Shown in pieces: positions 22,000 through 47,941 of a stretch of 54,778 nucleotides of DNA. This DNA is from a virus. Lineage: Duplodnaviria; Caudoviricetes. The notes beneath the pieces are model-generated. The model had not been told where the DNA came from. It ran no database searches and saw nothing but the letters and a program-made list of their open reading frames with translations. The position numbers and the translations under genes are program-made. Position 1 is the stretch's first letter. Every line of letters starts with the position of its first letter. Location of the stretch: the IMG/VR virus record IMGVR_UViG_3300028400_000008, positions 1 to 54,778 of that record; one strand, 5' to 3'.

Positions 22000-22371
22000 A
22001 TGAATTGGCAAGAAATGAAGAAACTAGCGTCACACTATGGAATCAACGCTCAAGGAATGAAAAAAGAGGAGCTTGAAAAAGCTTTGAAAGAAGCTGGAGC
22101 TTTCGATGAGCCTAAGAAAAAAGGCATGGTGAAAATCAAAGTAATAAACAATGATTCAGAAGACAATAGAGATAGCGCATATGTGGCTGTTGTAAACGAG
22201 CGTATTCAAGTAGCTGCGGTGGTTCCATTTGGTAAAGAAGTGGAAGTACCAGAACCAATCGTGAGAAATCTTGAAGCAACAATGATGCAAAAATTCGTGC
22301 CTCAAAATACTGAGGTTGGCGTAGTGGATAAAGAGGTTAGCGTTCCAAAATACACTGTAGTAAGGATTTGA
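22000..22371 (+). CDS. N4 gp55-like protein
   Basis: N-terminal helical hairpin (MKKLASHYGI...KEELEKAL) and VPFGKEVEVPEPIV..L; follows the capsid gene. Confidence 0.65.
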   Translation: MNWQEMKKLASHYGINAQGMKKEELEKALKEAGAFDEPKKKGMVKIKVINNDSEDNRDSAYVAVVNERIQVAAVVPFGKEVEVPEPIVRNLEATMMQKFVPQNTEVGVVDKEVSVPKYTVVRI

Positions 22372-22372
22372 T

Positions 22373-22843: not shown

Positions 22844-22846
22844 GAT

Positions 22847-24402: not shown

Positions 24403-24404
24403 TA

Positions 24405-33545: not shown

Positions 33546-33569
33546 TGACGAACGGGAAGGAGGTGACAT

Positions 33570-33764
33570 ATGGCAAAGGCCAAAAAAAAGATAGAGATAA
33601 AGCCTGAGAACAAAGGTAAGTTTACGCAATATTGCAAGCGTAAAGGGTATAAAGGCGTAACGAAAAAGTGTATCGAGGAGGGCAAAAAAAGCCCGAATCC
33701 AAAAACAAGAAAGCGTGCAACATTTGCAGCAAATTTCGCAAAAAAAGGAGGAAAAAAGAAATGA
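33570..33764 (+). CDS. Small, very basic protein (putative DNA-binding)
   Basis: GGAGG RBS. IKPENKGKFT...KRATFAANF, about one third Lys/Arg. Confidence 0.7.
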   Translation: MAKAKKKIEIKPENKGKFTQYCKRKGYKGVTKKCIEEGKKSPNPKTRKRATFAANFAKKGGKKK

Positions 33765-34012
33765 GAAAACTATTCATCGAAGCGTGTCAAGAGGTAGGCG
33801 TATCAAAAGGGAAAGCTGAAGCAGCATATAGGTTTTTTCTTGAGAATATGAAAAAAGAACTTGCCGAAGGTGGTTCCGTTGTAATCAGAGGCGTAGGTAC
33901 GCTAAAGAAAGAAAAAAGACAAGGAAGAAAAATCTACAGTCCATCGCTTGATAAAGTCATCGATGTTCCTGATAGAGAACTCATAGTATTCAAGCGTAGT
34001 AAAGCGAAGTAG
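33761..34012 (+). CDS. HU/IHF-family DNA-binding protein
   Basis: SKGKAEAAY..F...M...LAEGGSVVIRGVGTL...RQGRKIYSP.....IDVP.R..IVFK. ATG 33761 follows AGGAGG. Confidence 0.88.
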   Translation: MRKLFIEACQEVGVSKGKAEAAYRFFLENMKKELAEGGSVVIRGVGTLKKEKRQGRKIYSPSLDKVIDVPDRELIVFKRSKAK

Positions 34013-34379
34013 AGAGCAGGAGCTTCTCCGCTCTCTCTATGAACTTCAAAACCATATCATCTATTTCAAGCTCCAAATCTTTCAGTGTGAATGGAGCAAA
34101 AAGCTTTATTTTTAAAAATCTCAACCAAGCCCTGTCATCATGCTCACTTCCTAAAGCCAATATCTTTGCCATCGATGGATCGTCCATATATTCCGATAGT
34201 TTATAATACAGCTCATGAGCATAATTGACAGTGTTGACTTTGCTGTTATGAAGGTCATAGATAAGCTTATAATTTACTTTTCCGTCTTTGAAGATTTTGT
34301 CGTTTTTGCCAAATTTATTGTAGATCGTGTTTGGGTCTATGCCGTGAAGTCTGCTAAACTCCAATACGGTCATTGTCAC
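33990..34379 (-). CDS. Putative HTH protein, paralog family member 1
   Basis: Shares NYAHELY and LA......W..F with 38618-39052. Confidence 0.65.
   Translation of the reverse strand: MTMTVLEFSRLHGIDPNTIYNKFGKNDKIFKDGKVNYKLIYDLHNSKVNTVNYAHELYYKLSEYMDDPSMAKILALGSEHDDRAWLRFLKIKLFAPFTLKDLELEIDDMVLKFIERAEKLLLSTSLYYA
34011..34036. terminator. Hairpin where the + and - strand operons converge
   Basis: AGAGAGC-A-GGAG-CTT-CTCC-GCTCTCT. Confidence 0.4.
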
Positions 34380-34858
34380 TCCAGTAGTTTATAGTAGAGT
34401 TTATATGCAAAATCTATAGTCCTATCTATATCTTTTTTTGGATAGTGTCCATAGTGTCTTTTTACATCCTCTATTGTTTCGCCAATTATATCGAATAGCT
34501 CATCTACATTTGTTATGCCTCTGCCTATTTTTTTGTTATTGAAATCGACTTTGTATAGCTCAAGTATTGTCAGGGCAAATATAGGCAAAATGTATTCTCC
34601 GTACCTGCTTTTCTCATCTATTCCTTTATAACTCTTCATAAAGTGTAATCTTGCTAATTCGGCATATCTGTCTGCGTATATTCTTAACACATTGCCGACT
34701 TTATTTTTCAGTCTGTACAATTGAACCACCCACTGAGGTGGTTCGCTATCTACATTTTCAAATTCAAGATTCTGGTAGAATGTGTAAAGTATTGCATATT
34801 CTTTTATTATCCTTTTATCCAGCTTTTTCACATCTTCTCCTTGCAAGATGTTTTGCAC
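34376..34858 (-). CDS. Hypothetical protein
   Basis: 160-aa ORF in a tightly overlapping operon. Confidence 0.6.
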   Translation of the reverse strand: MQNILQGEDVKKLDKRIIKEYAILYTFYQNLEFENVDSEPPQWVVQLYRLKNKVGNVLRIYADRYAELARLHFMKSYKGIDEKSRYGEYILPIFALTILELYKVDFNNKKIGRGITNVDELFDIIGETIEDVKRHYGHYPKKDIDRTIDFAYKLYYKLLE

Positions 34859-35027
34859 GATCGATTTTTCCTCTCTTGATTAGCTGATAAATGTATTCAT
34901 CTATCGCCTCATTGTCAGTAATGACATCATCATCAAATAAGAAACTATAGTTATCACCTATTTTAAAAGTAGCTTTATGCATCGTTAGCTCTGGAATGCC
35001 ATTTCTCCAGTCGATTCTTTTCTTCAT
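34815..35027 (-). CDS. Hypothetical protein
   Basis: 70-aa ORF overlapping both neighbours. Confidence 0.5.
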   Translation of the reverse strand: MKKRIDWRNGIPELTMHKATFKIGDNYSFLFDDDVITDNEAIDEYIYQLIKRGKIDRAKHLARRRCEKAG

Positions 35028-35307
35028 TCTCGATCCTTTCTATTAACTTCAAGAACCTCTCAAAGTCTTTCTTCGTACACTTTTTTCTTGAGCTGCCGAT
35101 GAACAGGTAATGAAACATTGCATGGTGGTTCTTGCATAAAGTAATGCCGTTATTTATGTCAAATCTTTCGTCTTTGAAGTACGATGCGTGGTTCAAGTGA
35201 TGAGCTTCCCTATGTTTAATTGAACCACACGCTACACATCGCTTATCTCTTCTGATTGCCTTCGCTCTCCATATTCGATAAGCTCTGCTATTCCGCCAGT
35301 TCTTCAC
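34975..35307 (-). CDS. HNH endonuclease
   Basis: RDKRCVACG....EAHHL......ERFD.NNG.TLC..HH..FH. Confidence 0.88.
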   Translation of the reverse strand: MKNWRNSRAYRIWRAKAIRRDKRCVACGSIKHREAHHLNHASYFKDERFDINNGITLCKNHHAMFHYLFIGSSRKKCTKKDFERFLKLIERIENEEKNRLEKWHSRANDA

Positions 35308-35432
35308 TTGTCACCAAACAATCCATATATAGCGCCAATCACGAATGCAACAATGAGAAGAATCAAATTGAACACAATAGGTGCCAAAATCAAACCAATA
35401 CCAACGCAAAGACCAATTATTATCCATTCCAT
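35304..35432 (-). CDS. Small membrane protein (42 aa, not in ORF track)
   Basis: MEWIIIGLCVGIGLILAPIVFNLILLIVAFVIGAIYGLFGDK; stop overlaps the HNH GTG start. Confidence 0.6.
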   Translation of the reverse strand: MEWIIIGLCVGIGLILAPIVFNLILLIVAFVIGAIYGLFGDK

Positions 35433-35557
35433 TTCAATACCCTTTTAATGATTCTTAGTATATCGCTCATTAGCGAGTTATACAAATCTATTCCCATAGA
35501 AACTCCAAATCCGACAAAAATAGAAATTAGCAGAATTGTTATGATTGCTTCAACCAT
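35420..35557 (-). CDS. Small membrane protein (45 aa, not in ORF track)
   Basis: MVEAIITILLISIFVGFGVSMGIDLYNSLMSDILRIIKRVLKWNG with AAGGA RBS. Confidence 0.6.
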   Translation of the reverse strand: MVEAIITILLISIFVGFGVSMGIDLYNSLMSDILRIIKRVLKWNG

Positions 35558-35565
35558 TTCTTTCC

Positions 35566-36465
35566 TTATTCTTTTTTATATTCATCAACACCATTGGTGT
35601 CCCTTCCCTGTTTGCATTCTCCCACAAATTCATCATATAGATATCTATGCTCATCTGGCAATTTATCGAATACTGTGCAGGCAAGCTTCCTGATTTCCCA
35701 AAGAGCATCACGACTTGAGCGCAACTCAAGAAAATTCTGCAAATTCCTTCCGTCAATCTGCCACTGCAATTTTGTTTTGAACGCCTCTGGCAGCGAATAT
35801 TTTGCAATATCATTTCCTATTCCAAGAGATAGATTCTCCTTGAGGCTAATGAGCGACATTACAGAATTTAAATCAACTTTTTTATTGCCAGTGAATACGA
35901 GATATTTCTCGATTGCACTCTTTTTGTAAGCTGAATATCTACTACCAGTCAAACACAAATTTTCATTTGTGAATACCTCAAATCCAAGTTTCTCCATTTC
36001 ATGTCCGTCAGTCATGCTTTTTACCTTGTGCAGGACAATATCATTATCGTTTTTTAATTGCTTCAATGTATAGCGTGTGCTCTTGACGACCATTCTTGCA
36101 GTTCTGTGTCTTGCAAGTTCTTGCAGGCATGCCCTGCTGATACCGTCTATCTCAAACCAATAGACAAGTTGCTCAAGTACACTCTTATGTTTTAGCTTAT
36201 TTCCAATTCTTTCTAATAGTTCTTTGTCTTTTTTGCCAATGTGGTAAGCTACATCAATTACACCATATCCGCACTCTGCGCACAGTATCGAATCATATTC
36301 ATCTGCTTTAACTGAGCTTCCGCATTCTGGGCAGCTTATATTGCAGTTTGCGACACCATTACAAGCTACATAGTATGTATCACTCTTATCAAAGCTATCA
36401 TGGCTCATTCTTATTCCATTTACACAAACCCATAGCGGTGAATAGTAAATAAGATTAACTCTCAT
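35566..36465 (-). CDS. thyX: FAD-dependent thymidylate synthase
   Basis: H.SVLEQ, GISRACLQELARHR.....VKSTRY (RHRx7SxR signature), RNLQNFLELR....A.WEIR.LA. Confidence 0.95.
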   Translation of the reverse strand: MRVNLIYYSPLWVCVNGIRMSHDSFDKSDTYYVACNGVANCNISCPECGSSVKADEYDSILCAECGYGVIDVAYHIGKKDKELLERIGNKLKHKSVLEQLVYWFEIDGISRACLQELARHRTARMVVKSTRYTLKQLKNDNDIVLHKVKSMTDGHEMEKLGFEVFTNENLCLTGSRYSAYKKSAIEKYLVFTGNKKVDLNSVMSLISLKENLSLGIGNDIAKYSLPEAFKTKLQWQIDGRNLQNFLELRSSRDALWEIRKLACTVFDKLPDEHRYLYDEFVGECKQGRDTNGVDEYKKE

Positions 36466-36476
36466 ATCAGGTTACC

Positions 36477-36740
36477 TCACTTGCTTATCTTTTTCAAAAC
36501 AGCTACAAGATCTTTTTTTATTTTTTCAAGATCACCGACACATTCCTTAACATTATCGCTAATAGATAGCACGACAGCGGGATTAGCACCATTGAGTTTA
36601 AATCTGGCAGCTTCAATGCCAATTTCAGATATAGCGCCATCAAGTGCGTTTATCGCAACATCTATTTTCTCAATTGCTTCTTCTATCATTCTCTTCCTTT
36701 CATTATAAATCATTGAAATGCCTATAGTCCATATGCACAA
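36477..36740 (-). CDS. Hypothetical coiled-coil protein (start uncertain)
   Basis: Amphipathic helical ORF upstream of thyX. Confidence 0.5.
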   Translation of the reverse strand: MCIWTIGISMIYNERKRMIEEAIEKIDVAINALDGAISEIGIEAARFKLNGANPAVVLSISDNVKECVGDLEKIKKDLVAVLKKISK

Positions 36741-36793
36741 GTGCGATTAGCACACATAGCAATAGAACCACCAAGCCTATCATAAGCGCTTGC

Positions 36794-37276
36794 TCAATCA
36801 TCTTTCCTTCCTTTCATCTTTTCTAACCATTGTGCATACTTTTCATCAAGCTCCCATGTCGGGTGGTTCTTTTGAAGCAACTCCGCAATAGCGTTAGATG
36901 TCCCTTTTGATAGAAAAACATATGGATTAATGAGGTATTTACCTCTCCCAGTTCTTTTCCACATTCCACATTCAATACCTCTTTTGATCAATGGCGCAAT
37001 TCTTTTGTCGTAATCTGCGCCAATTTCACTAGCTATTTCAGTTGGTCGTTCGAATATATTATCTTTCGATTTGTTAAGTATCCACCAAAAAGCCATTATG
37101 TCTTTTGCGCCCTTACAAATATATGCCTGTTTCTCCATTATGCTCATGATATTGCCTTTAAAGTTCATTTTCTTTATGCTATAATACTTGACAGATGTGG
37201 CAATTGGGACATCAAAAAGCTCACCAGTTGCTTTGTCCACAATTGTCACTTTTCCAATCTTGCTTTCTTTTCTCAA
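36794..37276 (-). CDS. RepL-like winged-helix protein
   Basis: VDKATGEL N-terminus, EIASEIG....I...IKR.IE.G....GRGKYLINPYVF. TTG start with AAGGAG RBS. Confidence 0.65.
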   Translation of the reverse strand: MRKESKIGKVTIVDKATGELFDVPIATSVKYYSIKKMNFKGNIMSIMEKQAYICKGAKDIMAFWWILNKSKDNIFERPTEIASEIGADYDKRIAPLIKRGIECGMWKRTGRGKYLINPYVFLSKGTSNAIAELLQKNHPTWELDEKYAQWLEKMKGRKDD

Positions 37277-37311
37277 AAATGACTCCTTGATATACCCTAA
37301 TATTCTTCAGT

Positions 37312-37320
37312 ATTATAGCA
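37312..37320 (-). promoter_or_regulatory. Extended -10 sigma70 promoter TGCTATAAT
   Basis: Perfect TGnTATAAT on the - strand, about 35 nt upstream of the RepL-like gene. Confidence 0.7.
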
Positions 37321-37415
37321 CAAAATGTTACAGTATATGATATTGCTTTGTAAGTACCGTAAAATCGTGGTTTGTAAGCTTTTTGAGAGCGGTAGGGTAT
37401 ATATATAATACCTTG

Positions 37416-37631
37416 CTACTTGAAAATCCAGGCATCTATCTTGTAGAAAATGAACGCTCCAATAATTTGAACCACCAGCAGGTGGATGTATTCCATATAT
37501 CTATGCCCGTAGCAGCACTTGATTTTGATCAAGAACCACAAGGGCAACATCATTACGAAGCTAGACGCAATCCATCTAAAGAGATATATAATAAACTGAG
37601 TACTGAAGTAATCCATCTCTATTCCTTTCAT
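37416..37631 (-). CDS. Small two-TM membrane protein
   Basis: Y..RW..S..VM...L and Q.IGA.IFY.ID.WIFK. Confidence 0.65.
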   Translation of the reverse strand: MKGIEMDYFSTQFIIYLFRWIASSFVMMLPLWFLIKIKCCYGHRYMEYIHLLVVQIIGAFIFYKIDAWIFK

Positions 37632-37673
37632 ATTTGAACGCTAAGCGTCTTTTGAAGTTATTTTGATCATTGG

Positions 37674-38153
37674 TCAAGGTAGATTCAAAAAGCCGTTAGA
37701 ATCGAAATATGGACTTATGAGGTCGACAAAAATCTTTCTCTTTTTCGAATAGATCAGATTGTATGGTGCCTGGTTTAAAGGTATTGTATAAACATCATCG
37801 TGTATAAATATCGACCAAGATATTTTCGTATATTCCGTTTTGTCTGCAAGATATGAAACAACTTTTGCCTTTGTCCCCCTCTCCATGGAGTCTATTTTGT
37901 ACATCAAATCGATAGAATCCTTGTTGTATCTTCTTTTTACTAAATTAAATTGGTCAAGTATGCCAGCGTTTACAGTTCTTGTTCTATATTTTCCATTGAC
38001 AAGCGGAGTGCCTTGATATGTTTTGCAAAACACATATATACCACGAGGTGGTTCACCATAGCGCTCCATAAATGCTTTCGGATTCTCCCATTTTCTTACG
38101 GATGTATCGACTCCAAAGAAGCTGAGATAGCTTTCGATTTTTTTCCATTCCAT
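37674..38153 (-). CDS. Putative HTH protein, distant paralog family member 3
   Basis: FMERYG...YLADKTEYTKISWSIFI aligns with FADMYG...RLAVYGHRTVDAWNQYI. Confidence 0.55.
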   Translation of the reverse strand: MEWKKIESYLSFFGVDTSVRKWENPKAFMERYGEPPRGIYVFCKTYQGTPLVNGKYRTRTVNAGILDQFNLVKRRYNKDSIDLMYKIDSMERGTKAKVVSYLADKTEYTKISWSIFIHDDVYTIPLNQAPYNLIYSKKRKIFVDLISPYFDSNGFLNLP

Positions 38154-38416
38154 TCTCTCAACCTTTTAAGATGTTTTATTTTTTTGTCCTTTAGCTTTTG
38201 TATTTGTGAAGCAAGATACTCTTCCCTGTCGTTGAGTTCATGGTTTCTGTTTGCATAATTTTTAATATAGTTTTGGTGAAGCATATTTGCCTCAGCACTG
38301 ACTATTTGAGGAATTATCTCTTTTGCGCTTTTTGAAAAATCAACTGATTGATCCAGTACATTATAGTATGTGTCAAGATCCACACCATAAAGCTCCTCAT
38401 ATGTTGGCTTCATCAT
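38096..38416 (-). CDS. Hypothetical protein
   Basis: ORF in an overlapping operon with AAGGA RBS. Confidence 0.55.
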   Translation of the reverse strand: MMKPTYEELYGVDLDTYYNVLDQSVDFSKSAKEIIPQIVSAEANMLHQNYIKNYANRNHELNDREEYLASQIQKLKDKKIKHLKRLREWNGKKSKAISASLESIHP

Positions 38417-38646
38417 TTAGCTTCCTTTATTGTTGCAACTATATCCACTCTCATTTTGTCGATAGAAGGTATATAATTTATAAATATATCCCGAATATCA
38501 GCTTCATCTTTTTTACTCTTTTTGAAATATACATCCAATGTCCAAGTCCTAAAACTTTCTATGATAGATGGCAATTTTTCGTCGGAAGGATGAAATGATG
38601 TATATGAGATATACTTCTTACTTCCATTGATGCTGATTGGTTTCAT
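38413..38646 (-). CDS. Hypothetical protein
   Basis: 77 aa, GGAG RBS, ATGA overlap. Confidence 0.55.
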   Translation of the reverse strand: MKPISINGSKKYISYTSFHPSDEKLPSIIESFRTWTLDVYFKKSKKDEADIRDIFINYIPSIDKMRVDIVATIKEAK

Positions 38647-39052
38647 TCTGTTTCTCCCTTGTATAAATCCAAATCAATCGTGAGCCAAATAGGATAAATT
38701 CCATGAGCGCTTTTGACATTTTATAATATATTTCGTCTTGATGGAAAACCCACATTGATTTTCCAATATATTGGTTCCAAGCATCGACGGTTCTATGTCC
38801 GTATACTGCAAGTCGTTTTGATAAGTCTCTTTCAGTTTCAAATATATCCATAAGAAGCCAATAAAGCTCATGTGCATAGTTAAGGGCCTCTTTTTTTCTT
38901 TTTCCAAACCTCTTTATTTTGTCTATGTCTACATATGGCTTTCCGTCGATGGTGGTTCCAATTTCCTTATGCTGGCTATAGTACTGGAAAGCCCAATTGT
39001 ATGGCTTTCCATACATATCAGCGAACTTCTCTATCGTAACGAGCTTTTTCAT
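38618..39052 (-). CDS. Putative HTH protein, paralog family member 2
   Basis: LVTIEKFADMYG N-terminus (excisionase-like wHTH pattern) and NYAHELY. Confidence 0.65.
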   Translation of the reverse strand: MKKLVTIEKFADMYGKPYNWAFQYYSQHKEIGTTIDGKPYVDIDKIKRFGKRKKEALNYAHELYWLLMDIFETERDLSKRLAVYGHRTVDAWNQYIGKSMWVFHQDEIYYKMSKALMEFILFGSRLIWIYTREKQNETNQHQWK

Positions 39053-39398
39053 AGTTCGCCTTGTACCATTTTTTTTGAGCTTCTTCGCTTTTATCCTTTT
39101 CCCATTTTCCAGTTGCAGGATTGAATTTGCCTCTTCTACTATGAATTTCTCTCAATGTTTCAAACATAGCCTCTTCTGGATCGTATCCAAGCTTGTGAGT
39201 AGCTCCTGTGGCTATTACTCTTAAGTCGCATAGTGCGTCAATAATCTCATCTTCAGTCTTTGCGTTTTCAAGCTCTTCAAGCTCTTCTCTTAGCATCGCA
39301 ACCTCAGCCTGAAGGTCAAAATCCTTAAGTCCTCTTTCCTCATTCCAATCGATAATGGAATCAACTATTTTACACATTGCCAATCCTTTCATATTCAT
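39018..39398 (-). CDS. MazG-like nucleotide pyrophosphohydrolase
   Basis: I.DWNEERGL...MLREELEEL...EIIDALCDL.V...G; GKWEKD. Confidence 0.8.
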   Translation of the reverse strand: MNMKGLAMCKIVDSIIDWNEERGLKDFDLQAEVAMLREELEELENAKTEDEIIDALCDLRVIATGATHKLGYDPEEAMFETLREIHSRRGKFNPATGKWEKDKSEEAQKKWYKANYEKARYDREVR

Positions 39399-39690
39399 CT
39401 TGTATTAGTTTAGAATATCCTTGCAAATCAACAACCGTGTCTATGTGCTTGGAACCACCCCCGCCATTTACAAGCCTTGCAATCTTATGCAATATCATAT
39501 CTATTGCTTCTTTTTCGTATGGTTGAAGTTTTTGCCAATTGCCTTGATTTCGCACATCGTCTTTCAACAATTGGCATAAATCCGCTTGCGTTCTAAAGTC
39601 TCCATAAACAGATCCACGCTCACTTAGAACATTGTCTATAGTTGTCTTAACTGAGGACACTGTTTTTTCACAAATTCTATCTTTTTCCAT
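39370..39690 (-). CDS. Conserved phage protein (DUF6378-like)
   Basis: L.ERG..YGDF...EA.DMI.HKIAR..NG....D...D..GY..L. Confidence 0.7.
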   Translation of the reverse strand: MEKDRICEKTVSSVKTTIDNVLSERGSVYGDFRTQADLCQLLKDDVRNQGNWQKLQPYEKEAIDMILHKIARLVNGGGGSKHIDTVVDLQGYSKLIQDEYERIGNV

Positions 39691-39836
39691 AGTTCACTTC
39701 CTGATATTTTTGATTCTTTCAAAACTTCCAAATACTGCTTGATACTATATCCGCAACCAGTTTTATATCCGTTTAAATATAGATTTACTTTTTCATTAAT
39801 CTCCAAATTCGCCTCCTGTAGTTCCATAAAGTCCAC
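39636..39836 (-). CDS. Hypothetical protein
   Basis: Short ORF in the operon. Confidence 0.45.
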   Translation of the reverse strand: MDFMELQEANLEINEKVNLYLNGYKTGCGYSIKQYLEVLKESKISGSELWKKIEFVKKQCPQLRQL

Positions 39837-39981
39837 GAATCGGGTCTTTTGTATTCATGCTTTTTAGAACATAATATGATATTTTTTCTCCACCTTTAGA
39901 TGTCTTCGCAATTACCGAAATTACGACATATTTTGTATTATCTATCGTTACAACATCTCCTACATTTTTCAAGTAGTTCAT
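39796..39981 (-). CDS. Hypothetical protein
   Basis: 61 aa with AAGGAGG RBS. Confidence 0.55.
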   Translation of the reverse strand: MNYLKNVGDVVTIDNTKYVVISVIAKTSKGGEKISYYVLKSMNTKDPIRGLYGTTGGEFGD

Positions 39982-40312
39982 AGAAATCCTCCTTCTTCAT
40001 CACTACATATTCGCCTCTTGGCATAAATCTACCATTCACATTTTTGGTTCTTTTCCAAAAAAGGATATTTGGATAACCTTCGTCCGTTACAAAATTTATA
40101 CCGTCAAGTTTTGGAAAATTGACAGTGTTCTTACACTGAACACTGAACCACCCTTTGCCGTTTATATCTATAAGGTCTATACCCTTTGCATCTTTAAATC
40201 TTGAAACTTCACGGGTGGTTCTATAATCTGAACCATTGAACAATTTGTTCAGTTCGTTTTTTATTTTCCGCTCATAGCTGTTTCCAGCGTTTCTATTTCT
40301 TTTACCACTCAC
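39938..40312 (-). CDS. Holliday junction resolvase (Hjc-type PD-(D/E)xK)
   Basis: R..G.SYERKI...L, GIDL, SVQCK. Confidence 0.8.
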   Translation of the reverse strand: MSGKRNRNAGNSYERKIKNELNKLFNGSDYRTTREVSRFKDAKGIDLIDINGKGWFSVQCKNTVNFPKLDGINFVTDEGYPNILFWKRTKNVNGRFMPRGEYVVMKKEDFYELLEKCRRCCNDR

Positions 40313-40893
40313 CAGTTCACCTCACATCTTTTGTAATATGGACAAACATCCTTTACTATGCAATAGCTGTTGCATTTGGTCGGTGTATTCCTTCCATATC
40401 TGTCTTTTTTCACCCACCTATCCTCACACATAGGCGGGACTGCACCAGTATTGTATAAAAGACTCAGTCTTGAAGTAAAAGCATCAACTAAATGCTTAAC
40501 TTCCACTTGAGGCAATGTTACAGTATCAGAACCACCATCGCAAAAGAGAGCCATAAGCTTCATATTTTTCTCTTTTCCATATATCCATTTTAGGATATTT
40601 ATTTGGATAACATACGGGTGTTCTGAATTATATGATATGTGTGGTGTGTACGCATTGCCATAGATAGCATTTCTCTTAGGCATTTTGACTATATAAATGT
40701 TTTCATCGTCTTCGGCTTCTATCGTTCCGTTCACATCAATGCCATTGATGACTTTAGATACTTTTATATTTTTCGTATCGAAATCAAGTCCTTTGATAGC
40801 AAATTCTAACAACTTATGGCGTGGTGGTTCTATGTTGTGTTTTAGATAGAGCCACGCTGGAAGTATCTCTTTATGGCTTATGAAATTTATCAT
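40309..40893 (-). CDS. Degenerate paralog of the adjacent Cas4-like exonuclease
   Basis: True start probably ATG 40893 (MINFISH). Colinear with 41012-41752, including four C-terminal Cys, but the catalytic D-x-K is replaced by I-V-K. Confidence 0.75.
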   Translation of the reverse strand: MINFISHKEILPAWLYLKHNIEPPRHKLLEFAIKGLDFDTKNIKVSKVINGIDVNGTIEAEDDENIYIVKMPKRNAIYGNAYTPHISYNSEHPYVIQINILKWIYGKEKNMKLMALFCDGGSDTVTLPQVEVKHLVDAFTSRLSLLYNTGAVPPMCEDRWVKKDRYGRNTPTKCNSYCIVKDVCPYYKRCEVNW

Positions 40894-41012
40894 TTGCACC
40901 TTTCCTTCGCCCTTCTCAAAGCCGTTTCGTAGTTGGGTGCATATACGCTTATTTCGTTTCCGTTGCATACAAAGAACCAAATATTGTTCTTTTCGCCTAA
41001 GAAATGAATCAT
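40890..41012 (-). CDS. Small protein (40 aa, not in ORF track)
   Basis: MIHFLGEKNNIWFFVCNGNEISVYAPNYETALRRAKERCK, coupled by TAATG and ATGA overlaps on both sides. Confidence 0.65.
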   Translation of the reverse strand: MIHFLGEKNNIWFFVCNGNEISVYAPNYETALRRAKERCK

Positions 41013-41752
41013 TACCACATCTCCATTGTTGTCGTATGTTTTGGATTGAAGTATTTGCACTTGTCACTATATGCGCAATATTGCATACATCTTACTGGAA
41101 TAGACTTTCCTCTCACTTTCCTGAACCACAAATCTTTGCATTGAGGTGGTTCTATTCCTAATGTTTCAAATTGTTCTATCTGTGAAGTTATTTCGTAAAA
41201 TTTCTTTTCTATCTCATCATTAGATACGAGCGGTATTTGAATTACTTTCAGAGATGGCTTATTTTCCATTTTCCTAAAATCATATCCTCCATCTTTGAGA
41301 AACGCTATGAGGTACATACTCATTTCTTTGTCATGAAGTTTTTCATACAGATAGCGATATACATTGAGTTGCCACACATATTGATGGTCTGGCTCTTTTT
41401 CAACTCTTTCTATCGTATAGCTTTTTGTCACTTTTATATCGCATATTGCATCTTGCAAAACGATGTCTGCCATACCTGTAAGCTTCCAGCCATTTGGCAT
41501 CTCAAGCTCCATCGAAACCTCTGTTTCAGCCTCGTCTTTCAGTATCTGCTCCATACCGAAATGAACCACCGTACCCAATGTATCTTGGCCTATTTCCGTT
41601 TTTTCAGGCACTCCATATTTGTATCTAAGCCATATTTGCAAAATATCGTTACCAAAATCTGATGCAGATATGGCTTTAATTCCAGCCTCAGTATTCCCTT
41701 GATATTGCGTTTTCTCAAGTATTTTTTCCGTAATCCATTTTTCAAGATTCAT
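41012..41752 (-). CDS. Cas4/RecB-like PD-(D/E)xK exonuclease (N4 gp42-like)
   Basis: GTVVH..ME, LTGMAD......DIK, QLNVY, C...RC..YC.....C. Confidence 0.88.
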   Translation of the reverse strand: MNLEKWITEKILEKTQYQGNTEAGIKAISASDFGNDILQIWLRYKYGVPEKTEIGQDTLGTVVHFGMEQILKDEAETEVSMELEMPNGWKLTGMADIVLQDAICDIKVTKSYTIERVEKEPDHQYVWQLNVYRYLYEKLHDKEMSMYLIAFLKDGGYDFRKMENKPSLKVIQIPLVSNDEIEKKFYEITSQIEQFETLGIEPPQCKDLWFRKVRGKSIPVRCMQYCAYSDKCKYFNPKHTTTMEMW

Positions 41753-41937
41753 CTTATATCCTTAATCAAGTCGTATATACATAACCCAGCTATATAACCA
41801 GCAGGATATGACCAACATATTACTGCTGCTTGCTTATTGCCAACAAAAAGGAACATAATTCCAAGAATCCAAAATATTACTATTCCAATTTCATTGAGTT
41901 TTTCAAGATCCACTTTGACTTCCTTTATTTGAACCAC
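41749..41937 (-). CDS. Small two-TM membrane protein (start probably near 41913)
   Basis: Two hydrophobic segments. Confidence 0.55.
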   Translation of the reverse strand: MVQIKEVKVDLEKLNEIGIVIFWILGIMFLFVGNKQAAVICWSYPAGYIAGLCIYDLIKDIR

Positions 41938-41957
41938 CCCATGCGAGGTGGTTCTAT

Positions 41958-42575
41958 TTAGATTTCGATGTCTTCAGCAGTTTGCTTTGGTTCTTCTTTT
42001 TTCTTTCGAAGTTTTCTCAATGGATTCTTTGCAAGGAATTTTTCCCATTTATCTTTTTTCTCAGAATCGTTGCATTTAAAGAAATCCTTCACATCAATTT
42101 TTGTATTTATTTCTCCATTATATTCATTTTCGTATTGCTGAATAGCTACGCAAACCTCTTTGCCTTCAAGTTCCTGGAAAGCTTTTGCGTCAACCACTTT
42201 CCCATAATGTTCTACCTTTACAGGCTTAGGTTTAACATTCAATGGAACTCCAACTGCATCGAACAAATGTTTAACCATGATAGTTCCTGGCAGCGGATAT
42301 TCTTTGCCATCTCTTGTATATGTGGCTTTATTACCTTTTGCGTCTCCACTTCTAACGGCAGTACTCCAAAAGATATGACGACCTCCAATAGGATTGTCAT
42401 CAGTAACCTCTACCATATCGATATTGAACATTGTTGCGCCACCGCTTGATGTTGTAAGATATGCTTTATCGACTTTCACTTTATAAACGCCTGATTCAAT
42501 CTGTTTGAACTCAGGCACATCGATATTGTCATGTTCCTCAAGCAAGCTTTCGTCAATTCCCAACCAATTTTCCAT
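41958..42575 (-). CDS. Single-stranded DNA-binding protein, N4 gp45-like
   Basis: ESGVY...V..AY...S.GGA and SGDAKGNKATYTRDGKEYPLPG, closely resembling N4 SSB as recalled; acidic tail. Confidence 0.85.
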   Translation of the reverse strand: MENWLGIDESLLEEHDNIDVPEFKQIESGVYKVKVDKAYLTTSSGGATMFNIDMVEVTDDNPIGGRHIFWSTAVRSGDAKGNKATYTRDGKEYPLPGTIMVKHLFDAVGVPLNVKPKPVKVEHYGKVVDAKAFQELEGKEVCVAIQQYENEYNGEINTKIDVKDFFKCNDSEKKDKWEKFLAKNPLRKLRKKKEEPKQTAEDIEI

Positions 42576-42576
42576 A

Positions 42577-42792
42577 TTATTCTCCTTTTTCGTATTTTAG
42601 CTCTTCTTTGATTGTTTTTTTGATAGACTCGTGCAAATCATAACTGAAACTCTTACTACCATCATTCTTGTATGCAATAGAGTGTTTTTCATACAGGTCT
42701 TGTTTCTCTACTATTTCGACCTCCTTTAATTCAAGATTTGTATACTCTTTGAGAACCTCGAACAGTTCTTTTACCGTTAGTGCCAGCTTCAT
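42577..42792 (-). CDS. Hypothetical protein
   Basis: 71 aa with AGGAG RBS. Confidence 0.6.
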   Translation of the reverse strand: MKLALTVKELFEVLKEYTNLELKEVEIVEKQDLYEKHSIAYKNDGSKSFSYDLHESIKKTIKEELKYEKGE

Positions 42793-42793
42793 T

Positions 42794-43483
42794 TTATTCT
42801 CCTATTCCATAATATTCGCAAATCTGTTTATCGACATAGGCCAAATCGTTTGGTATTCTAATATCTGGAAACATATCCTCTGGACTTTTTGCTACATCAT
42901 TGTCGCTCCTTTTGTTTGTAATAAACCAATACCCATCATCGTCTTTTTCCGCTTGAAGAACCACCGTCATCATCGCTGGAATATCGACTTTTTCACTTAT
43001 GAGCTTTCCAATCGTTTTGAAAGTCAATCTTCCATACTGTGTTTCGTCAAGGTGGTTCACAATATATACTCTCGCATCTTCGCTTGTAGCTTCCCCTGCT
43101 TTTAAAATGTCGTAATATTGTTTTGCAAGGTCCGTGAATTTATCGAACCCCCTTTCTTTTGCGGTGTCCATAAAGTACTTAACCATTGTGAATGTGCTAT
43201 CGTCTACAATGATTCTTTTTTTGCCGTACTTATCGAATGCTTCAATCGCTTTTGCGATCATAGAGCCATTCTCAAGATATATGTAATCGCCTTGCTTCTT
43301 GTCTTTATCCCATTGTCTTAGTTTATTTCTAAACGGCAATGGCTTTTTCAGAACCCTGATCAAAATCGTGTCATCTGGAAATTGTAGCTCAGATGTCAAT
43401 AAGCTCTTCAAAGACCTCGATTTTCCCGTTCCGCTGAACCCTACTACGCTTGTCAGTATTCCCATTTGTTCTCCTTGTTTCAT
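42794..43483 (-). CDS. Sak4-like AAA ATPase / ssDNA annealing protein (N4 gp44-like; start probably 43465)
   Basis: G.SGTGKS.SL, IIVDD, G.DKF, KTIGK, AKSP.DMF..I.NDL. Confidence 0.85.
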   Translation of the reverse strand: MKQGEQMGILTSVVGFSGTGKSRSLKSLLTSELQFPDDTILIRVLKKPLPFRNKLRQWDKDKKQGDYIYLENGSMIAKAIEAFDKYGKKRIIVDDSTFTMVKYFMDTAKERGFDKFTDLAKQYYDILKAGEATSEDARVYIVNHLDETQYGRLTFKTIGKLISEKVDIPAMMTVVLQAEKDDDGYWFITNKRSDNDVAKSPEDMFPDIRIPNDLAYVDKQICEYYGIGE

Positions 43484-43623
43484 TTAGTTTCAAAACCAAT
43501 TCCAGACAATCTTCTGGAAAACCATAATAGTGATACACGACAGAACCACCTTTGTTGAATAAAGACAATTCAGCCATATCATCGCTAAAAAAGCTTACAC
43601 TATATTCTGGATTTGGCATCGTT

Positions 43624-43857
43624 TTAAAAAGCTCCAAAATCCTTTCTTTGTTTTTTGGCAGATGGATCACATTTGATTCCGTTGTCTGTAACATAATATC
43701 CTTCCTCCTCTAAAAGCTCTATAAGTTGGATTCTTTTGTTCAATAATGCCTCTTTTTCTTTCAGCACCTTTTTGAGCTTTTTTTCGTTCTTTGCCAAATC
43801 TGCAATTAGTTGAACTATCCTATTCATCTCTTCTCCTTTTTTAGATACCCGATCCAT
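43624..43857 (-). CDS. Hypothetical coiled-coil protein
   Basis: AAGGAG precedes internal start MNRIVQ. Confidence 0.55.
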   Translation of the reverse strand: MDRVSKKGEEMNRIVQLIADLAKNEKKLKKVLKEKEALLNKRIQLIELLEEEGYYVTDNGIKCDPSAKKQRKDFGAF

Positions 43858-44006
43858 TGGTTATTTATTTTGTTAAAAACCTCTTCACGCTTAGACCACA
43901 ATGGTTTTATCGTTTTGATTATGTGGTTCTCCCTGTCGTAAATTCTTATCACACATTTTCCATATATGTGGTCTTCGAACTCTATTTTTCCAACTTTTGA
44001 CCACAC
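43824..44006 (-). CDS. Hypothetical protein
   Basis: 60 aa overlapping both neighbours. Confidence 0.5.
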   Translation of the reverse strand: MWSKVGKIEFEDHIYGKCVIRIYDRENHIIKTIKPLWSKREEVFNKINNQWIGYLKKEKR

Positions 44007-44245
44007 TACTCAACCTTTGGATAAAGTATAAGATAGTCGTAACCATCTAAATTGAAATACACTAAATCTTGAAGCTTTGATATTTGCTCTTCATCAAGAT
44101 TTGTTAGACATATTCTGTATTCAATCTCTTGTCTACTCTCCCATTTTTCATAATCTATATCATACAGATGCTTTAAGCCAGCCACTATCAAGCCAACATT
44201 TTCAATAGGCTGAAAACCTGCTTCAATTATACTTCTATCTTCCAT
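44006..44245 (-). CDS. Small acidic hypothetical protein
   Basis: GAGGAG RBS, acidic. Confidence 0.6.
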   Translation of the reverse strand: MEDRSIIEAGFQPIENVGLIVAGLKHLYDIDYEKWESRQEIEYRICLTNLDEEQISKLQDLVYFNLDGYDYLILYPKVE

Positions 44246-44516
44246 ATTTTCTCCTCAAGGCCTCAATTTCATTTTCGTTGAACCAATCGCTTGTTTCCAC
44301 TTCAAAGTCAAAGTGCCTGTCGGCAATTTTGCAGTATATTGTTACATTTACTTTCTCCAGATAATCCTCAGCATCTTTCATAGAATCAAGAATTTGCTCT
44401 CTTACTTCATCTCTATCATCTTCTGTCAATTCGCACCACCATTGTCTGTAACCGTGTGATGGGAACAAGTCGTCTACCCCGTAATGCGTCTCTGGAGATT
44501 CATAATAACATTCCAT
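44235..44516 (-). CDS. Small, highly acidic hypothetical protein
   Basis: AAGGAG RBS, D/E-rich. Confidence 0.65.
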   Translation of the reverse strand: MECYYESPETHYGVDDLFPSHGYRQWWCELTEDDRDEVREQILDSMKDAEDYLEKVNVTIYCKIADRHFDFEVETSDWFNENEIEALRRKYGR

Positions 44517-44519
44517 TTT

Positions 44520-44858
44520 CTACTCCTTTACAATTTCTTTTTCTACAGCTTCTTCGATAATCTCATCAATAATATCTTCGTTGCCCAAAATTAGAATTTC
44601 CCAGGCAAACCATGCCAAATCATTTAGAGATAGTCTGTCCGATGGGATATAATTTCCGTACACATCTTGCATCATCTCTATAATTTCATCATGATGCTCA
44701 CATGCGATTGGTTCTGTTTCATTGTAATAAATTAATCCGCCTACTGAGCCACTTGCTGGATGCGCTTCATTCATGAGATAGTTCCTCGCTTCCTCCTCCG
44801 ACATTCCTTCGATATTGTCAAATGCTATTTTTTTCAGTTTGCCAATTAGACTCATCAT
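44520..44858 (-). CDS. Acidic phage protein with G.VGGLIYY.ET motif
   Basis: True start at MMSLIGK after AAGGAG. SGSVGGLIYYNET....HHDEI...N.LAWFAWE. Confidence 0.7.
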   Translation of the reverse strand: MMSLIGKLKKIAFDNIEGMSEEEARNYLMNEAHPASGSVGGLIYYNETEPIACEHHDEIIEMMQDVYGNYIPSDRLSLNDLAWFAWEILILGNEDIIDEIIEEAVEKEIVKE

Positions 44859-45033
44859 CTTTCTCCTTTTCAATAATTTCAGAAAGGCACAATGAGTATT
44901 CAGATAAAAATATATCTCTTGCAATGTCTTCAGCTTCATTTTCATCTTTTGCAAGCGTTTCTATCTCCACGCTCCCAGCAACTGCTTTCAAACCAGGAAA
45001 ACAAATATTAAAGTAAACTTTATATAGTTGCAC
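44818..45033 (-). CDS. Small hypothetical protein
   Basis: AGGAGG RBS, GTG start overlapping the primase stop. YKV.F...A.DE.EA..IA pattern. Confidence 0.6.
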   Translation of the reverse strand: MQLYKVYFNICFPGLKAVAGSVEIETLAKDENEAEDIARDIFLSEYSLCLSEIIEKEKDDESNWQTEKNSI

Positions 45034-47093
45034 TATATCCTCCTTAGCAATTTTTGAATCTCTTTTTCACTGAGTGGTTCTTGAAGCATAGCGTTTGTTC
45101 TGTATGTAACTTCTCTTGCTTCATCACTGGGACCACTGATGTCCTCTACGAACTTCATCAAACGATACAAAGATATGTTTCTGTTTCCTTTGTATCCGTT
45201 TGCAAGCGTCCATCTCACCATTCCTTGAATGCGCTTATCTTTCGTTATATCATCTATATCTTCGCTTTCTGCTTTTGCTATAAACTTCTCAGAATTTGTT
45301 TCTGGGATACAGCAAAGAACATCAAGCAATTCCGACTCATTCTTTAGAACCACCGTATTTGGATTTGTAAACCACAATCTTGATATGTTTCTTGTCGATA
45401 CATCATATGATGGCAGATTGAGCAATTTTGCAATGTTCTCTATCAACCCTTTATGCTGTTCTGGATTAACATAGAATTTATGTTTAGTTGGCAAAATCAC
45501 TCTGAATCGGTGGTTCTCTTCTGTATGTGATTTTGTCGTATAGAGAATGTATGTGAATGGCCTCAATATTTCTTGTGCTTGTTCAATTGTGAAACCTTCA
45601 TCAAAATCAAACGCAATCGCATTTTGTCCTTCAATCGTATTTTTATCCGCTCTCTTTCCATCATAGTGTACAAGGCTGAACGCTTCGTAATTTTCGCTTC
45701 TGACAAGTTTTTCAATGGAATTCCTTTCTCCAAAGAATGGCAATTCAAGATTTCTGAATATGACTGATTTTGCACCCTTACCGTCTGTAGCTACCGATAC
45801 AATTATTTTGTTCAAATCAGTCTGCGGCAGTGGTTCTATCGCATATCTTTTAATCTTGGAACCACGCTCCACCAAAACCTCATTATTTCGATATGCAAGC
45901 TCGTGGACAAGCTCTATATCCTCGTTGAATGTGTTTCTCTGGAATATATCCTTTTCAAGGATTTCGCTTTTGGTAAGCTCACCATACTGTTTGATGAGCT
46001 TATATATTCTTTTATGCTGTGGTTCTGTATTGAATAAGTCCTGAACCGTATTCCTGCATTGTTTGTAGAAGTCATATGCATAGTCGACATCATCATCAGT
46101 TACATTAAGAGAACCACCTGCTATTGCGTGCAATGCTGCAAGTTTTACTATTTTGTCAAATGAGCCTAGCTCGGCATTGAATCTCTCATCGTCTATATGC
46201 TGATTTGAGAACTCAAGTAATTCCTTATTAATATCTTCATATTTTCCATCGCTGATTGATATATCGATAACAATGCTTTCACCCTCAAGCCTTTTGTCAA
46301 TGTTACTTTTAATAAAACTCTTGATGTTGCTAACGACAAATTCGATGATATCTTTATCATACTCTTCCTTTTTTGTCTTGAATTGTCTCTCTTGAGGTGG
46401 TTCATAGTAGATAAAGCTTCTACGATAAATACCTGAGTTTAATGCGTTGCTGAACATTTGATAAGTCGATAAGCTTCTCTTTAGTCCAATGCTTGAGCCA
46501 AAGATAAGCATATTAGAGTTGATGCCTTCTATGTTTCTATTTACATTGCTCTTGATTATTTTTGCATTGAATTTTCCATCATACAACTCTTTCATTCTAT
46601 TGAGATTTGAATCTTTGACAATATCAAGTATTTCCTCGTTAATCACATTTAGTGAACCGCACCAGCTATGTGATAGCGCTAATGCTCTAAGATACAATCC
46701 TTCTGGTGTTCCTTCTATGTTGATAGTGAAATCCAATGGAAGGAAGTTTTTCAATGGCACCTTTGAGCCATCTATAATGATTTCACCTTCTTCGTCATCG
46801 AATGGTAGTGCCATATTCGCTTTTTGAAACCCTTGGATTATTGCGTTTTTGTACCCTTTCATATTTGGGTTCAAAAGTTCTATTGTTTTATCAAGACTAA
46901 AAGATTTTCCTGCGCTCGAAGACGCTATTGTGATGCCAAAGTAGTTCAAAGGAAGATTTTTGTATGAGATTTTTGGCTGTAGTAGCCCTAAAAGAGAGCT
47001 TACTGAGAACCACCACGCGTTCTCAATAATTTCTCTTGATGTTTCAAATCTTCCTTGACTGTTTATATAATTGATGATATGATTTATATACAT
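45033..47093 (-). CDS. Helicase-primase fusion: N-terminal P-loop ATPase, C-terminal AEP primase-polymerase and PriCT-like domain (N4 gp43-like)
   Basis: Walker A ASSSAGKS, Walker B NVINEEI, SGIYRR. AEP motifs IAFDFDEG, YTTKSH, RFRVILP, YD.ST..ISRLWF. GNRN.SLY. Confidence 0.85.
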   Translation of the reverse strand: MYINHIINYINSQGRFETSREIIENAWWFSVSSLLGLLQPKISYKNLPLNYFGITIASSSAGKSFSLDKTIELLNPNMKGYKNAIIQGFQKANMALPFDDEEGEIIIDGSKVPLKNFLPLDFTINIEGTPEGLYLRALALSHSWCGSLNVINEEILDIVKDSNLNRMKELYDGKFNAKIIKSNVNRNIEGINSNMLIFGSSIGLKRSLSTYQMFSNALNSGIYRRSFIYYEPPQERQFKTKKEEYDKDIIEFVVSNIKSFIKSNIDKRLEGESIVIDISISDGKYEDINKELLEFSNQHIDDERFNAELGSFDKIVKLAALHAIAGGSLNVTDDDVDYAYDFYKQCRNTVQDLFNTEPQHKRIYKLIKQYGELTKSEILEKDIFQRNTFNEDIELVHELAYRNNEVLVERGSKIKRYAIEPLPQTDLNKIIVSVATDGKGAKSVIFRNLELPFFGERNSIEKLVRSENYEAFSLVHYDGKRADKNTIEGQNAIAFDFDEGFTIEQAQEILRPFTYILYTTKSHTEENHRFRVILPTKHKFYVNPEQHKGLIENIAKLLNLPSYDVSTRNISRLWFTNPNTVVLKNESELLDVLCCIPETNSEKFIAKAESEDIDDITKDKRIQGMVRWTLANGYKGNRNISLYRLMKFVEDISGPSDEAREVTYRTNAMLQEPLSEKEIQKLLRRI

Positions 47094-47266
47094 ATAGTCT
47101 CCTTTGGCATTTGAACCACCTCTCTTGGTGGTTCTGTATTGTGCATCGTATTTGGATTAGCTATCGTTGAATGTGTAGTATATAACCATTATCATAGCTA
47201 ATAAGCTTAGTGTCCCGACTGAGAATATTGTTAATCCATTCCAATCTATATCGCACATTATTTTTC

Positions 47267-47917
47267 CTATTCAAATGGTATAGTAGGATTCTCTCCTACT
47301 ATTTCAATCCATTTGTCGTGAAACTTTTGCCAGAAACCAAATCCTTCTTTTGTATTTTTCCAATAAAATGCTTCTTGAATGAAATCGTATGGGTCTAACT
47401 TTTTTATTTCGTCTAATGTTTTATAGTTTTCTTTAAAAGGCCATCTTTGATTTTCGGTTCTTGTGTTATACATATATTCATTATAAACACCTTCTTGTAT
47501 CAAAAAATCAACGAATGATGTTATTTTGCTTAGTGGTTTTGATAAAACATATGAGTCATTTGTGGCCTTGAAAGGCATAAGTGTATTTGGTCTATAACAC
47601 AAGAAAATATCCTTTTTCCATGTTTCACCATCATCTGAAAATAGTGCATCTTCTCCTGGCGTTGGTACCCATTTTTCATTTCCCGCTGATACGATGAATG
47701 AATAAGCATCAATTTCTTCAAATTCGTGCTCTTTGTAAAAATCTTCATTATCATATATCATTGAAATTTTTTTATCTTCATTTATAAAAAGATATTTATA
47801 GTCAATATACTTTATTTCTCGTTTTCCATTTGGCCAAGAACCACCATTTGCAAATACAATTTCTTGCACTCTTTCAGACAACTCTGGCGTTACTTTCATT
47901 TTTACTTCCGTAAGCAT
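47267..47917 (-). CDS. Hypothetical multi-domain protein
   Basis: 216 aa with AAGGAG RBS. Confidence 0.7.
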   Translation of the reverse strand: MLTEVKMKVTPELSERVQEIVFANGGSWPNGKREIKYIDYKYLFINEDKKISMIYDNEDFYKEHEFEEIDAYSFIVSAGNEKWVPTPGEDALFSDDGETWKKDIFLCYRPNTLMPFKATNDSYVLSKPLSKITSFVDFLIQEGVYNEYMYNTRTENQRWPFKENYKTLDEIKKLDPYDFIQEAFYWKNTKEGFGFWQKFHDKWIEIVGENPTIPFE

Positions 47918-47941
47918 TTTTTCTCCTTTTTATATTTTATT

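Follow-up and report, generated by a model that had tools for sequence, protein, structure and literature searches.

A genome-wide word in a phage encoding a helicase-primase

The complete phage genome IMGVR_UViG_3300028400_000008 (54,778 bp; Duplodnaviria, Caudoviricetes), hereafter the window, was found to carry the seven-base word GTGGTTC at 135 sites and to encode a fused helicase-primase of 686 amino acids (aa) related to gp43 of phage N4. The word probably represents recognition sites of this primase, read on the single-stranded template by the PriCT-type helix bundle that ends the protein, a reading drawn from sequence comparison and from analogy with known enzymes, in which we have moderate confidence.

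Against the 5 or so GTGGTTC sites expected, the observed number gave a z of 58, and the longer form GGTGGTTC, present at 96 of the sites, had a mean of 0.56 copies in shuffled sequences (about one expected). The sites occur once per 761 bases on the plus strand and once per 870 bases on the minus strand, in agreement with the approximately 130 sites spaced at about 0.8 kb per strand that had been reported in the initial annotation. In the controls, the top 7-mers reached a z of ~10 in T7, where they are promoter pieces, and ~6 in a 50-kb sample of E. coli. Sites occupy each of the three codon phases, in sense and antisense orientation, about 22 of them are intergenic by the open reading frame (ORF) calls made here, and the information around a site is limited to about nine positions, namely (G)G-TGGTTC followed by a base other than G. 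The word is selected at the DNA level. A protein-coding origin was rejected in view of the three phases, the two orientations and a context of no more than about nine positions, and promoters for the virion RNA polymerase or for RNAPII were rejected as the 135 sites lie on both strands and inside genes; in N4, AT-richness marks the middle promoters and early promoters are few, according to the accessible text of PMC4496689.

The distribution of the sites was more even than random when each strand was taken alone. For 11 of the 12 strand sets, drawn from six genomes, the gaps had a coefficient of variation lower than the mean of random placement (0.63–0.94 versus ~0.95–0.98), and three of the 12 were individually significant at P < 0.05; the plus strand of the window gave 0.63 (P < 0.0005). 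When the strands were pooled, spacing was near random. Evenness on each strand, and not in the pool, fits a reader of single-stranded DNA.

The helicase-primase

The 686-aa translation holds AFDFDEGF, with its DFD motif, and YTTKSH. The family phrog_2135, annotated as DNA primase, matched residues 46–682 (E 1.5e-62), and N4 gp43 aligned collinearly over residues 23–679 (BLASTP, 23% identity, E 2e-32). By tblastn 469 phage records were matched, all at <60% identity and mostly from Schitoviridae, the primases of which share ~25% identity with >90% of the protein. Pfam gave no match for the window primase itself, and no PDB sequence matched the 686-aa protein.

Structure prediction was carried out on the two halves separately, each with an alignment of 36 homologues. 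The model of residues 1–439 (pLDDT 87.6) consists of an MCM-like AAA+ domain and a winged helix, for which Foldseek retrieved 189 PDB chains at E ≤ 1e-3, with MCM2-7 subunits at the top (E 2e-6, probability 1.0; TM-score 0.40, normalised by query length), while profile matches to MCM7 and MCM6 were weak (E 0.002–0.004). K62 (K63 in alignment A3), R223 and R224 of the AAA+ part are invariant or nearly so among the homologues. Residues 440–686 (247 aa, pLDDT 88) were modelled as an archaeo-eukaryotic primase (AEP) domain followed by a helix bundle. Their best Foldseek match was 6zp9_A, the AEP domain of PrimPol from cyanophage S-2L (E 6e-5, probability 1.0), and VIA-align placed 6zp9_B at Z 7.7 and RepB' at Z 6.6, listing also Prim-PolC, LigD, CAPP and the poxvirus (MPXV) E5 primase. 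D495, D497, H522 and D563 are invariant in alignments of 25 and 36 homologues, and we take them to be the AEP motifs DxD and sxH and the third acidic residue.

The bundle at residues 601–686 comprises four to five helices in the model. PF08708 (PriCT_1) matched 21 of the 36 homologous C-termini, with a best E of 2.5e-11; VIA-align returned only generic helical matches for the bundle, and the profile of the C-terminus found only designed helical proteins among PDB sequences (E 0.09 and above). Judged from sequence and predicted structure, the assignment of the ORF to the N4 gp43 family of replicative helicase-primases is secure, the predicted parts being the MCM-like AAA+ domain, the winged helix, the AEP domain and the PriCT-1-type bundle. 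A fusion with the helicase first and the AEP domain (DFD, TTKSH) last had already been suggested in the initial annotation, and the ORF, the folds and the invariant residues agree with it; the type of helicase, which was not stated there, is MCM-like AAA+.

Dialects of the word among relatives

IMG/VR was searched with the primase alignment, which gave 54 loci and, including the window, 55 sources, some of them near-identical. The top-enriched hexamer lay inside NTGGTTCN in 31 of the 55. One-base variants were found in 11 more (TGGCTC in seven; TGGATC, TGGTAC, GGGGTT and TGGCTT in one each) and two-base variants in another three (TTGGCTGC in one, TTGCTACA in two), and the ten remaining sources had nothing comparable. 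The dialects of the relatives include TTGGTTCT, the commonest, TGGCTC, TTGGATC, TTGGTAC, CTGGTTCC and GGGGTTC. The word is thus a clade-wide trait, newly described here.

A maximum-likelihood tree, quickly built from 47 full-length primases, separated a clade of 38 rows, every one of which has a word of this kind, from an N4-like clade of nine rows on a long branch, of which two have one. Dialects change at no fewer than eight places on this tree: TGGCTC arises twice, and GTGGTTC appears in the group of the window and again in locus L012, while TTGGTAC, TTGGATC, CTGGTTCC, GGGGTTC and TTGCTACA have single origins.

N4 itself (L072, NC_008720, positions 20001–70000) has 82 copies of CTGGTTC versus 21.2 expected and 38 of ACTGGTTC versus 5.8, and EcP1 (L071, NC_019485, positions 1–50000) has 68 of TTGGTTC versus 10.5. 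CTGGTTC was depleted (3 versus 14.4 expected), and Chi enriched (14 versus 4.5), in 50 kb sampled from E. coli K-12; in N4 at least, the word is thus no trait of the host. Subscription-only papers apart, no mention of over-represented words in N4 or EcP1 was found in the literature. Other words were seen in two loci: L035 (14,964 bases) has, besides TGGCTC, the words GCACCTCT (10 versus 0.3 expected) and GAGGTGCT (9 versus 0.3), and the distant L054 (20,423 bases), the primase match of which is partial, has GGTACAGC and GTACCTGC (13 versus 0.5 each).

Co-variation of the word with the C-terminal bundle

Five genomes were compared with the window by BLASTP. Matches were present in all five for the large terminase subunit TerL, the portal, the gp57-like protein, the major capsid protein and the primase, in four for the nuclease, in three for SSB (single-stranded DNA-binding protein), in two for the superfamily 2 (SF2) helicase and in none for HU and the winged helix-turn-helix (wHTH) protein. 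The primase was the only replication protein of the window matched in every one of the five; neither HU nor the wHTH protein is likely to be the reader, because both lie outside the gene families common to the word-bearing relatives.

A position weight matrix was built around the top hexamer of each locus, and pairwise motif similarity was related to the identity of four parts of the primase by a partial Mantel test (partial correlations with label permutation). Identity of the PriCT part (residues 601–686) correlated with motif similarity (r 0.30, P 0.0005, n 34), also after removal of near-duplicates (r 0.345, P 0.002, n 25) and after addition of metagenome loci (r 0.275, P 0.003, n 38). The latter came from 79 loci, of which 28 were dropped as duplicates; 21 of the rest were processed, 14 were admitted before the filters for length, completeness and enrichment, and eight remained among the 38 rows. 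The partial correlation for the winged helix was 0.14–0.18 (P 0.06–0.11), and AAA+ and AEP identity had a negative r with motif similarity.

In models including a control protein, the PriCT part and the rest of the primase, none of SSB (n 21), Sak4 (n 14) and the nuclease (n 17) reached significance, and PriCT gave r 0.30–0.40 (P 0.001–0.014). The PriCT signal was robust to a GC-difference covariate, to quadratic covariates, to the omission of L012 or of the TTGGTTCT clade and to the restriction to pairs below 55% identity. Sliding windows of 30 residues placed the peak at residues 601–645 (r 0.34 and 0.27), with a minor bump at 406–450. A pair of near relatives illustrates the trend: L012 (word GTGGTTCT) and L008 (TTGGTTCT) share 0.82 identity in the AEP domain and 0.38 in PriCT, whereas L003 and L008, with the same dialect, share 0.81 and 0.82. 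Inspection of the PriCT alignment by eye revealed no residue-to-base code.

Absence of a DNA polymerase

No DNA polymerase was found among the 72 ORFs of the window in PHROGs and Pfam scans, and a looser PHROGs scan (E ≤ 0.1) of eight large unannotated ORFs returned no polymerase family, so that a polymerase hidden in these ORFs was rejected. Six-frame searches for family A (PF00476) gave nothing in nine records (the window, G001–G003 and G006–G010; 45–112 kb, estimated 78–100% complete), and those for family B (PF00136) and Pol III alpha (PF07733) gave nothing in the five records tested, the window included. The description in the initial annotation of a phage with no DNA polymerase is hence corroborated by the ORF scans and the six-frame searches for families A, B and C. 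A family A polymerase is present in the N4-like records G004 and G005, and the gp43-type protein adjoins one in N4 and EcP1. As N4 and EcP1 have a polymerase and show the same kind of word, more weakly, the lack of one is not a defining feature of the phenomenon.

Proposed role of the word and alternatives

According to the reading favoured here, the helicase would expose single-stranded DNA, on which (G)GTGGTTC or its complement would be recognised by the PriCT bundle, and the AEP domain would start a primer beside the word. Many copies would be kept on each strand, such that a fork moving in any direction would meet start sites; since chance alone yields only ~1 to 5 copies of a 7–8-base word per 55 kb, such a number would have to be maintained by the genome. 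Word and PriCT domain would co-evolve, giving rise to the dialects of the relatives. As the phage lacks a DNA polymerase, the primers would most likely be passed to the replicative polymerase of the host.

Several observations weigh against this reading. PF08708 did not match the C-terminus of the window protein itself at E ≤ 0.01 or even at E ≤ 1, and seven of the nine N4-like rows lack TGGTTC-type enrichment, six of them having an unrelated top hexamer. The density of sites on both strands, up to one per 190–400 bp, is beyond the apparent need of lagging-strand priming. The cumulative strand skew of the word in the window rises from 1 to 20 kb, is flat from 20 to 50 kb and dips at 50.5–51 kb, and a clean V is seen in G002 only, at ~6.5–8 kb. 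Partial Mantel tests are prone to yield excess positives with related sequences. The PriCT signal was absent in the closest 13-member subclade (r -0.03, P 0.48), and no usable convergent residues were found in the two TGGCTC lineages, the test giving one column in the primase, in a variable part of the N-terminal domain, and one to six columns in the controls. Thus the co-variation between AEP/PriCT sequence and heptamer that the initial annotation had suggested checking exists in part: the dialect follows PriCT, but it does not follow the AEP core, and it fails in the 13-member subclade. Last, no biochemistry of any gp43-type protein was found in the literature, subscription-only papers apart, and none is known to us.

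The alternative that survives best, although we judge it unlikely, is that the word is a phage-specific polar signal for another conserved factor, for instance one like Chi that would act on the exonuclease, the SF2 helicase or the recombination module. It would protect phage DNA or direct its processing, and the co-variation with PriCT would be indirect. A short over-represented word with strand bias is a Chi-type signature, and such bias is found in EcP1 (23 plus, 59 minus) and in G005 (52 plus, 81 minus), throughout the genome and independently of gene direction; a site density above the apparent priming need would also suit such a signal, as would the genes for Sak4, SSB, the nuclease and RusA beside the primase. 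However, identity of SSB, Sak4 or the nuclease had no link to the dialect once the primase was modelled, while PriCT kept its link, and among the five compared genomes the nuclease is matched in four and the SF2 helicase in two, versus five for the primase. To our knowledge, no phage-encoded Chi reader of this kind has been described.

Two further alternatives appear improbable, and each leaves part of the favoured reading in place. The first, raised already in the initial annotation, concerns the hand-off step alone, the AEP domain being a true primase-polymerase that copies the whole genome. Self-replication by the enzyme is possible: no DNA polymerase was found in the nine clade records, the S-2L PrimPol AEP domain heads the fold matches, and, as far as the accessible parts of the papers tell, NrS-1 and S-2L employ their PrimPols as polymerases. 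It is less likely than hand-off to the host polymerase, given that the homologues in N4 and EcP1 sit beside a family A polymerase, which indicates that the ancestral role of the family is that of a primase, and that AEP enzymes lack proofreading according to the accessible text of PMC5862659. In the second, which we rate equally low, the same protein would read the word on double-stranded DNA through its winged helix, and the sites would be dispersed helicase-loading sites, that is, many small origins. The winged helix gave the only other positive partial correlation, accompanied by the minor bump of the sliding windows, and the word lies inside three iterons of an origin-like region (see below), but the winged-helix signal never reached significance and the even spacing per strand, not pooled, favours reading of a single strand.

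A word imposed by the host, as host Chi or uptake sequence, mimicry of host k-mers or evasion of defence, is very improbable: Chi-type enrichment in the host is lacking in the one case at hand, N4 in the E. coli sample, dialects differ among related phages and change frequently on the tree, and the core of the word is common to phages recorded from unrelated hosts, N4 (E. coli) and EcP1 (Enterobacter cloacae).

The reading of the word as primase sites may be extended to a 'priming code' of the whole family, a joint proposal that is tentative and, taken together, rather doubtful. Phages of the gp43 type would use primase words of unusual length, 7–8 bases, which would have to be written into their own genomes 100–200 times; the word would mark phage DNA as self, such that primers would be made there and scarcely on that of the host; in the clade without a polymerase, the host's replicative polymerase would be captured for the phage; and word and PriCT would drift jointly, dialects being potential barriers at the level of replication between related phages in one cell. 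Outside subscription-only papers, the literature yielded no primase word long enough to require saturation of the genome and none that shifts in dialects with its reading domain. Sequence-specific AEP primases are known from few enzymes. If the reading of the word as primase sites is right, it would explain how a clade of 45–112 kb phages manages without a DNA polymerase, provide a sequence rule for locating primer start sites and tell what the PriCT-1 bundle does in a very large family of phages, with 469 matching phage records; coliphage N4 and its host E. coli would allow an immediate test. Should the word have a different reader, a model phage would still carry a genome-wide word that lacks an explanation.

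Comparison with known systems

N4 gp43 (annotated as DNA primase) and its Schitoviridae relatives are the nearest counterparts, being full-length collinear homologues in a neighbourhood that includes an exonuclease, Sak4 and SSB, and N4 has an over-represented NTGGTTC word, CTGGTTC. They differ in the low identity to the window protein (23% for gp43), in the family A polymerase that N4 and EcP1 possess and the window phage and eight other clade records do not, and in the enrichment of the 7-mer, which is 27-fold in the window and ~4-fold in N4.

Fused helicase-primases are also known from T7, the gp4 of which initiates primers on the lagging-strand template at defined words. Its primase is of the DnaG type with a zinc finger and reads words of 3–5 bases, and the most enriched words of T7 are promoter pieces (z about 10–14). 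Chi sites and the dialects of DNA uptake sequences are words of 7–10 bases, over-represented genome-wide, which change by single bases from one lineage to the next in step with their reader. They are cellular, however, and read by RecBCD/AddAB or by competence proteins, whereas the word described here is phage-specific and, in the case of N4, depleted in the E. coli sample.

Among AEP primases, it is the helix bundle that binds the recognition site, as stated in the accessible text of PMC8718748. According to the same source the enzyme of phage NrS-1 reads 5'-TTTGGTTA-3' and, more efficiently, 5'-GTG(A/G)-3', which confirms the specific template site ascribed to it in the initial annotation. 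Like the window protein, it unites AEP domain, helix bundle and helicase in one chain; its 8-base word shares TTGGTT with the TTGGTTCT dialect, and GTGG, one form of its short site, lies within GGTGGTTC. The order of domains differs, with AEP, bundle and helicase in NrS-1, where Prim/Pol and HBD are N-terminal (PMC7102993, accessible text), and the helicase first and AEP and bundle last here; that the order is N4 gp43-like and inverted relative to NrS-1 had been noted previously, and holds in view of the collinearity with gp43. The NrS-1 enzyme is, moreover, a polymerase using dNTPs (deoxynucleoside triphosphates), and genome-wide enrichment of its 8-mer is not reported in the accessible text. 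The NrS-1 chain was not among the fold matches listed by Foldseek and VIA-align, an absence that does not exclude kinship. ORF904 of plasmid pRN1 is likewise an AEP enzyme whose PriCT-1 helix bundle reads a template word (PMC8718748 and PMC5862659, accessible text), but the word, GTG, has three bases, the protein is encoded by a plasmid and has the AEP domain first, and no enrichment of sites is needed.

Strand polarity, origin-like region and inverted pairs

In G002 (L058–L060), TTGGTTC occurs 18 times on the minus and four times on the plus strand before 7.5 kb and then mainly on the plus strand up to ~20 kb. This switch is the pattern expected at a bidirectional origin with the word on the lagging-strand template, and it is less clear in the other genomes. 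The cumulative skew of EcP1 and G005 falls monotonically. As the shapes differ among the window, G002, EcP1 and G005, a common model of lagging-strand polarity was rejected.

The dip of the skew in the window coincides with an origin-like region (Table 1), three of the four iterons of which carry TTAGTGGTTCA. Its hairpin has a 17-bp stem (-14.8 kcal/mol, z -7.4), and eight word sites fall within 50513–50981. The region is upstream of a small ORF, the product of which is, at a guess, ribbon-helix-helix-like, and of the wHTH initiator-like gene.

Six inverted pairs of the word within 25 bases were found versus 1.5 expected (P 0.002). Five have the form GAACCACC-N(5-13)-GGTGGTTC, and the pair at 41123 departs from it in having A after GAACCAC in its left arm. 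The 8-bp stems have energies from -7.7 to -8.4 kcal/mol, and four of the six are at gene ends. The excess is absent from G001–G005; the pairs are a local feature, perhaps terminators.

Genome layout and other features

Table 1 Features of the window. Positions refer to the 54,778-bp record.
Feature	Position	Strand	Basis
GTGGTTC, 135 copies (72 plus, 63 minus), 96 of them GGTGGTTC	1..54778	.	genome-wide count
Helicase-primase fusion gene, gp43 type, 686 aa	45033..47093	-	ORF; phrog_2135; collinearity with N4 gp43
MCM-like AAA+ NTPase, residues 1–370, Walker A GKS 61–63	45984..47093	-	model, Foldseek, invariant columns
Winged-helix-like module and linker, residues 371–439	45777..45983	-	model: helices 375–402, strands 405–421
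AEP primase catalytic domain, residues 440–600	45294..45776	-	Foldseek, VIA-align, invariant residues
C-terminal helix bundle, PriCT-1 type, candidate word reader, residues 601–686	45036..45293	-	model, Pfam in homologues, co-variation
Inverted pair GAACCAC(C)-N-(G)GTGGTTC	47113..47134	.	directly upstream of primase gene
Other five inverted word pairs	starts 21957, 34723, 41123, 41931, 50854	.	same pair type
Origin-like region	50700..50845	.	four GTTCA-N6-TGAAC iterons 22–28 bp apart, then strong hairpin
wHTH (HTH_36, O-like) replication-initiator-like protein	50055..50486	-	PHROGs/Pfam scans
SF2 helicase (ResIII and Helicase_C)	47942..49483	-	PHROGs/Pfam scans
Sak4-like single-stranded DNA annealing protein, N4 gp44 position	42794..43483	-	phrog_2872, E 3e-59; synteny with N4 and EcP1
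DUF669-type SSB	41958..42575	-	PHROGs/Pfam scans
PD-(D/E)XK exonuclease, N4 gp42-like	41012..41752	-	PHROGs/Pfam scans, BLASTP
Direct terminal repeat, exact, 127 bp	1..127 and 54652-54778	.	record classed as having direct terminal repeats

The plus-strand genes up to ~34 kb are structural and include those for the large terminase, an SU10-type portal, the major capsid protein and a protein of 3,046 aa, while the early and replication genes occupy the minus strand from 34 kb onward. The sign of the GC skew flips at ~34 kb together with gene direction and therefore holds no separate information on replication. The genes for the exonuclease, Sak4 and SSB lie inside 5 kb on the strand of the primase gene, and N4 and EcP1 have the same set; RusA is also encoded near the primase. 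No tRNA genes were found in the phage, and a search of genome contigs directed at the host found no relative. The terminal repeat has a run of eight G at its end and, on the minus strand, includes the word twice.

The 3,046-aa protein (24405–33545, plus strand) has a C-terminal part that matches the family of the N4 virion RNA polymerase (phrog_2206, E 1.6e-49), and subunits like those of N4 RNAPII were not seen in the PHROGs scan of the window. An HU-like DNA-binding protein is encoded at the point where gene direction switches (33668–34012, plus), and a protein similar to RepL, known from plasmid replication in Firmicutes, within the early region (36794–37276, minus). Very large proteins resembling tail fibres are encoded on the plus strand at 3172–8370 (1,732 aa) and 11291–13816 (841 aa); the smaller matched no PHROG family of known function, and its look-alikes in the Atlas are tail or tail-tip proteins, which serve as leads only. 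A ThyX-type thymidylate synthase homologue (35566–36465, minus) has an additional N-terminal stretch similar to a zinc ribbon, and a MazG-like pyrophosphatase is encoded nearby (39018–39398), the two genes possibly acting in nucleotide modification or in control of the nucleotide pool.

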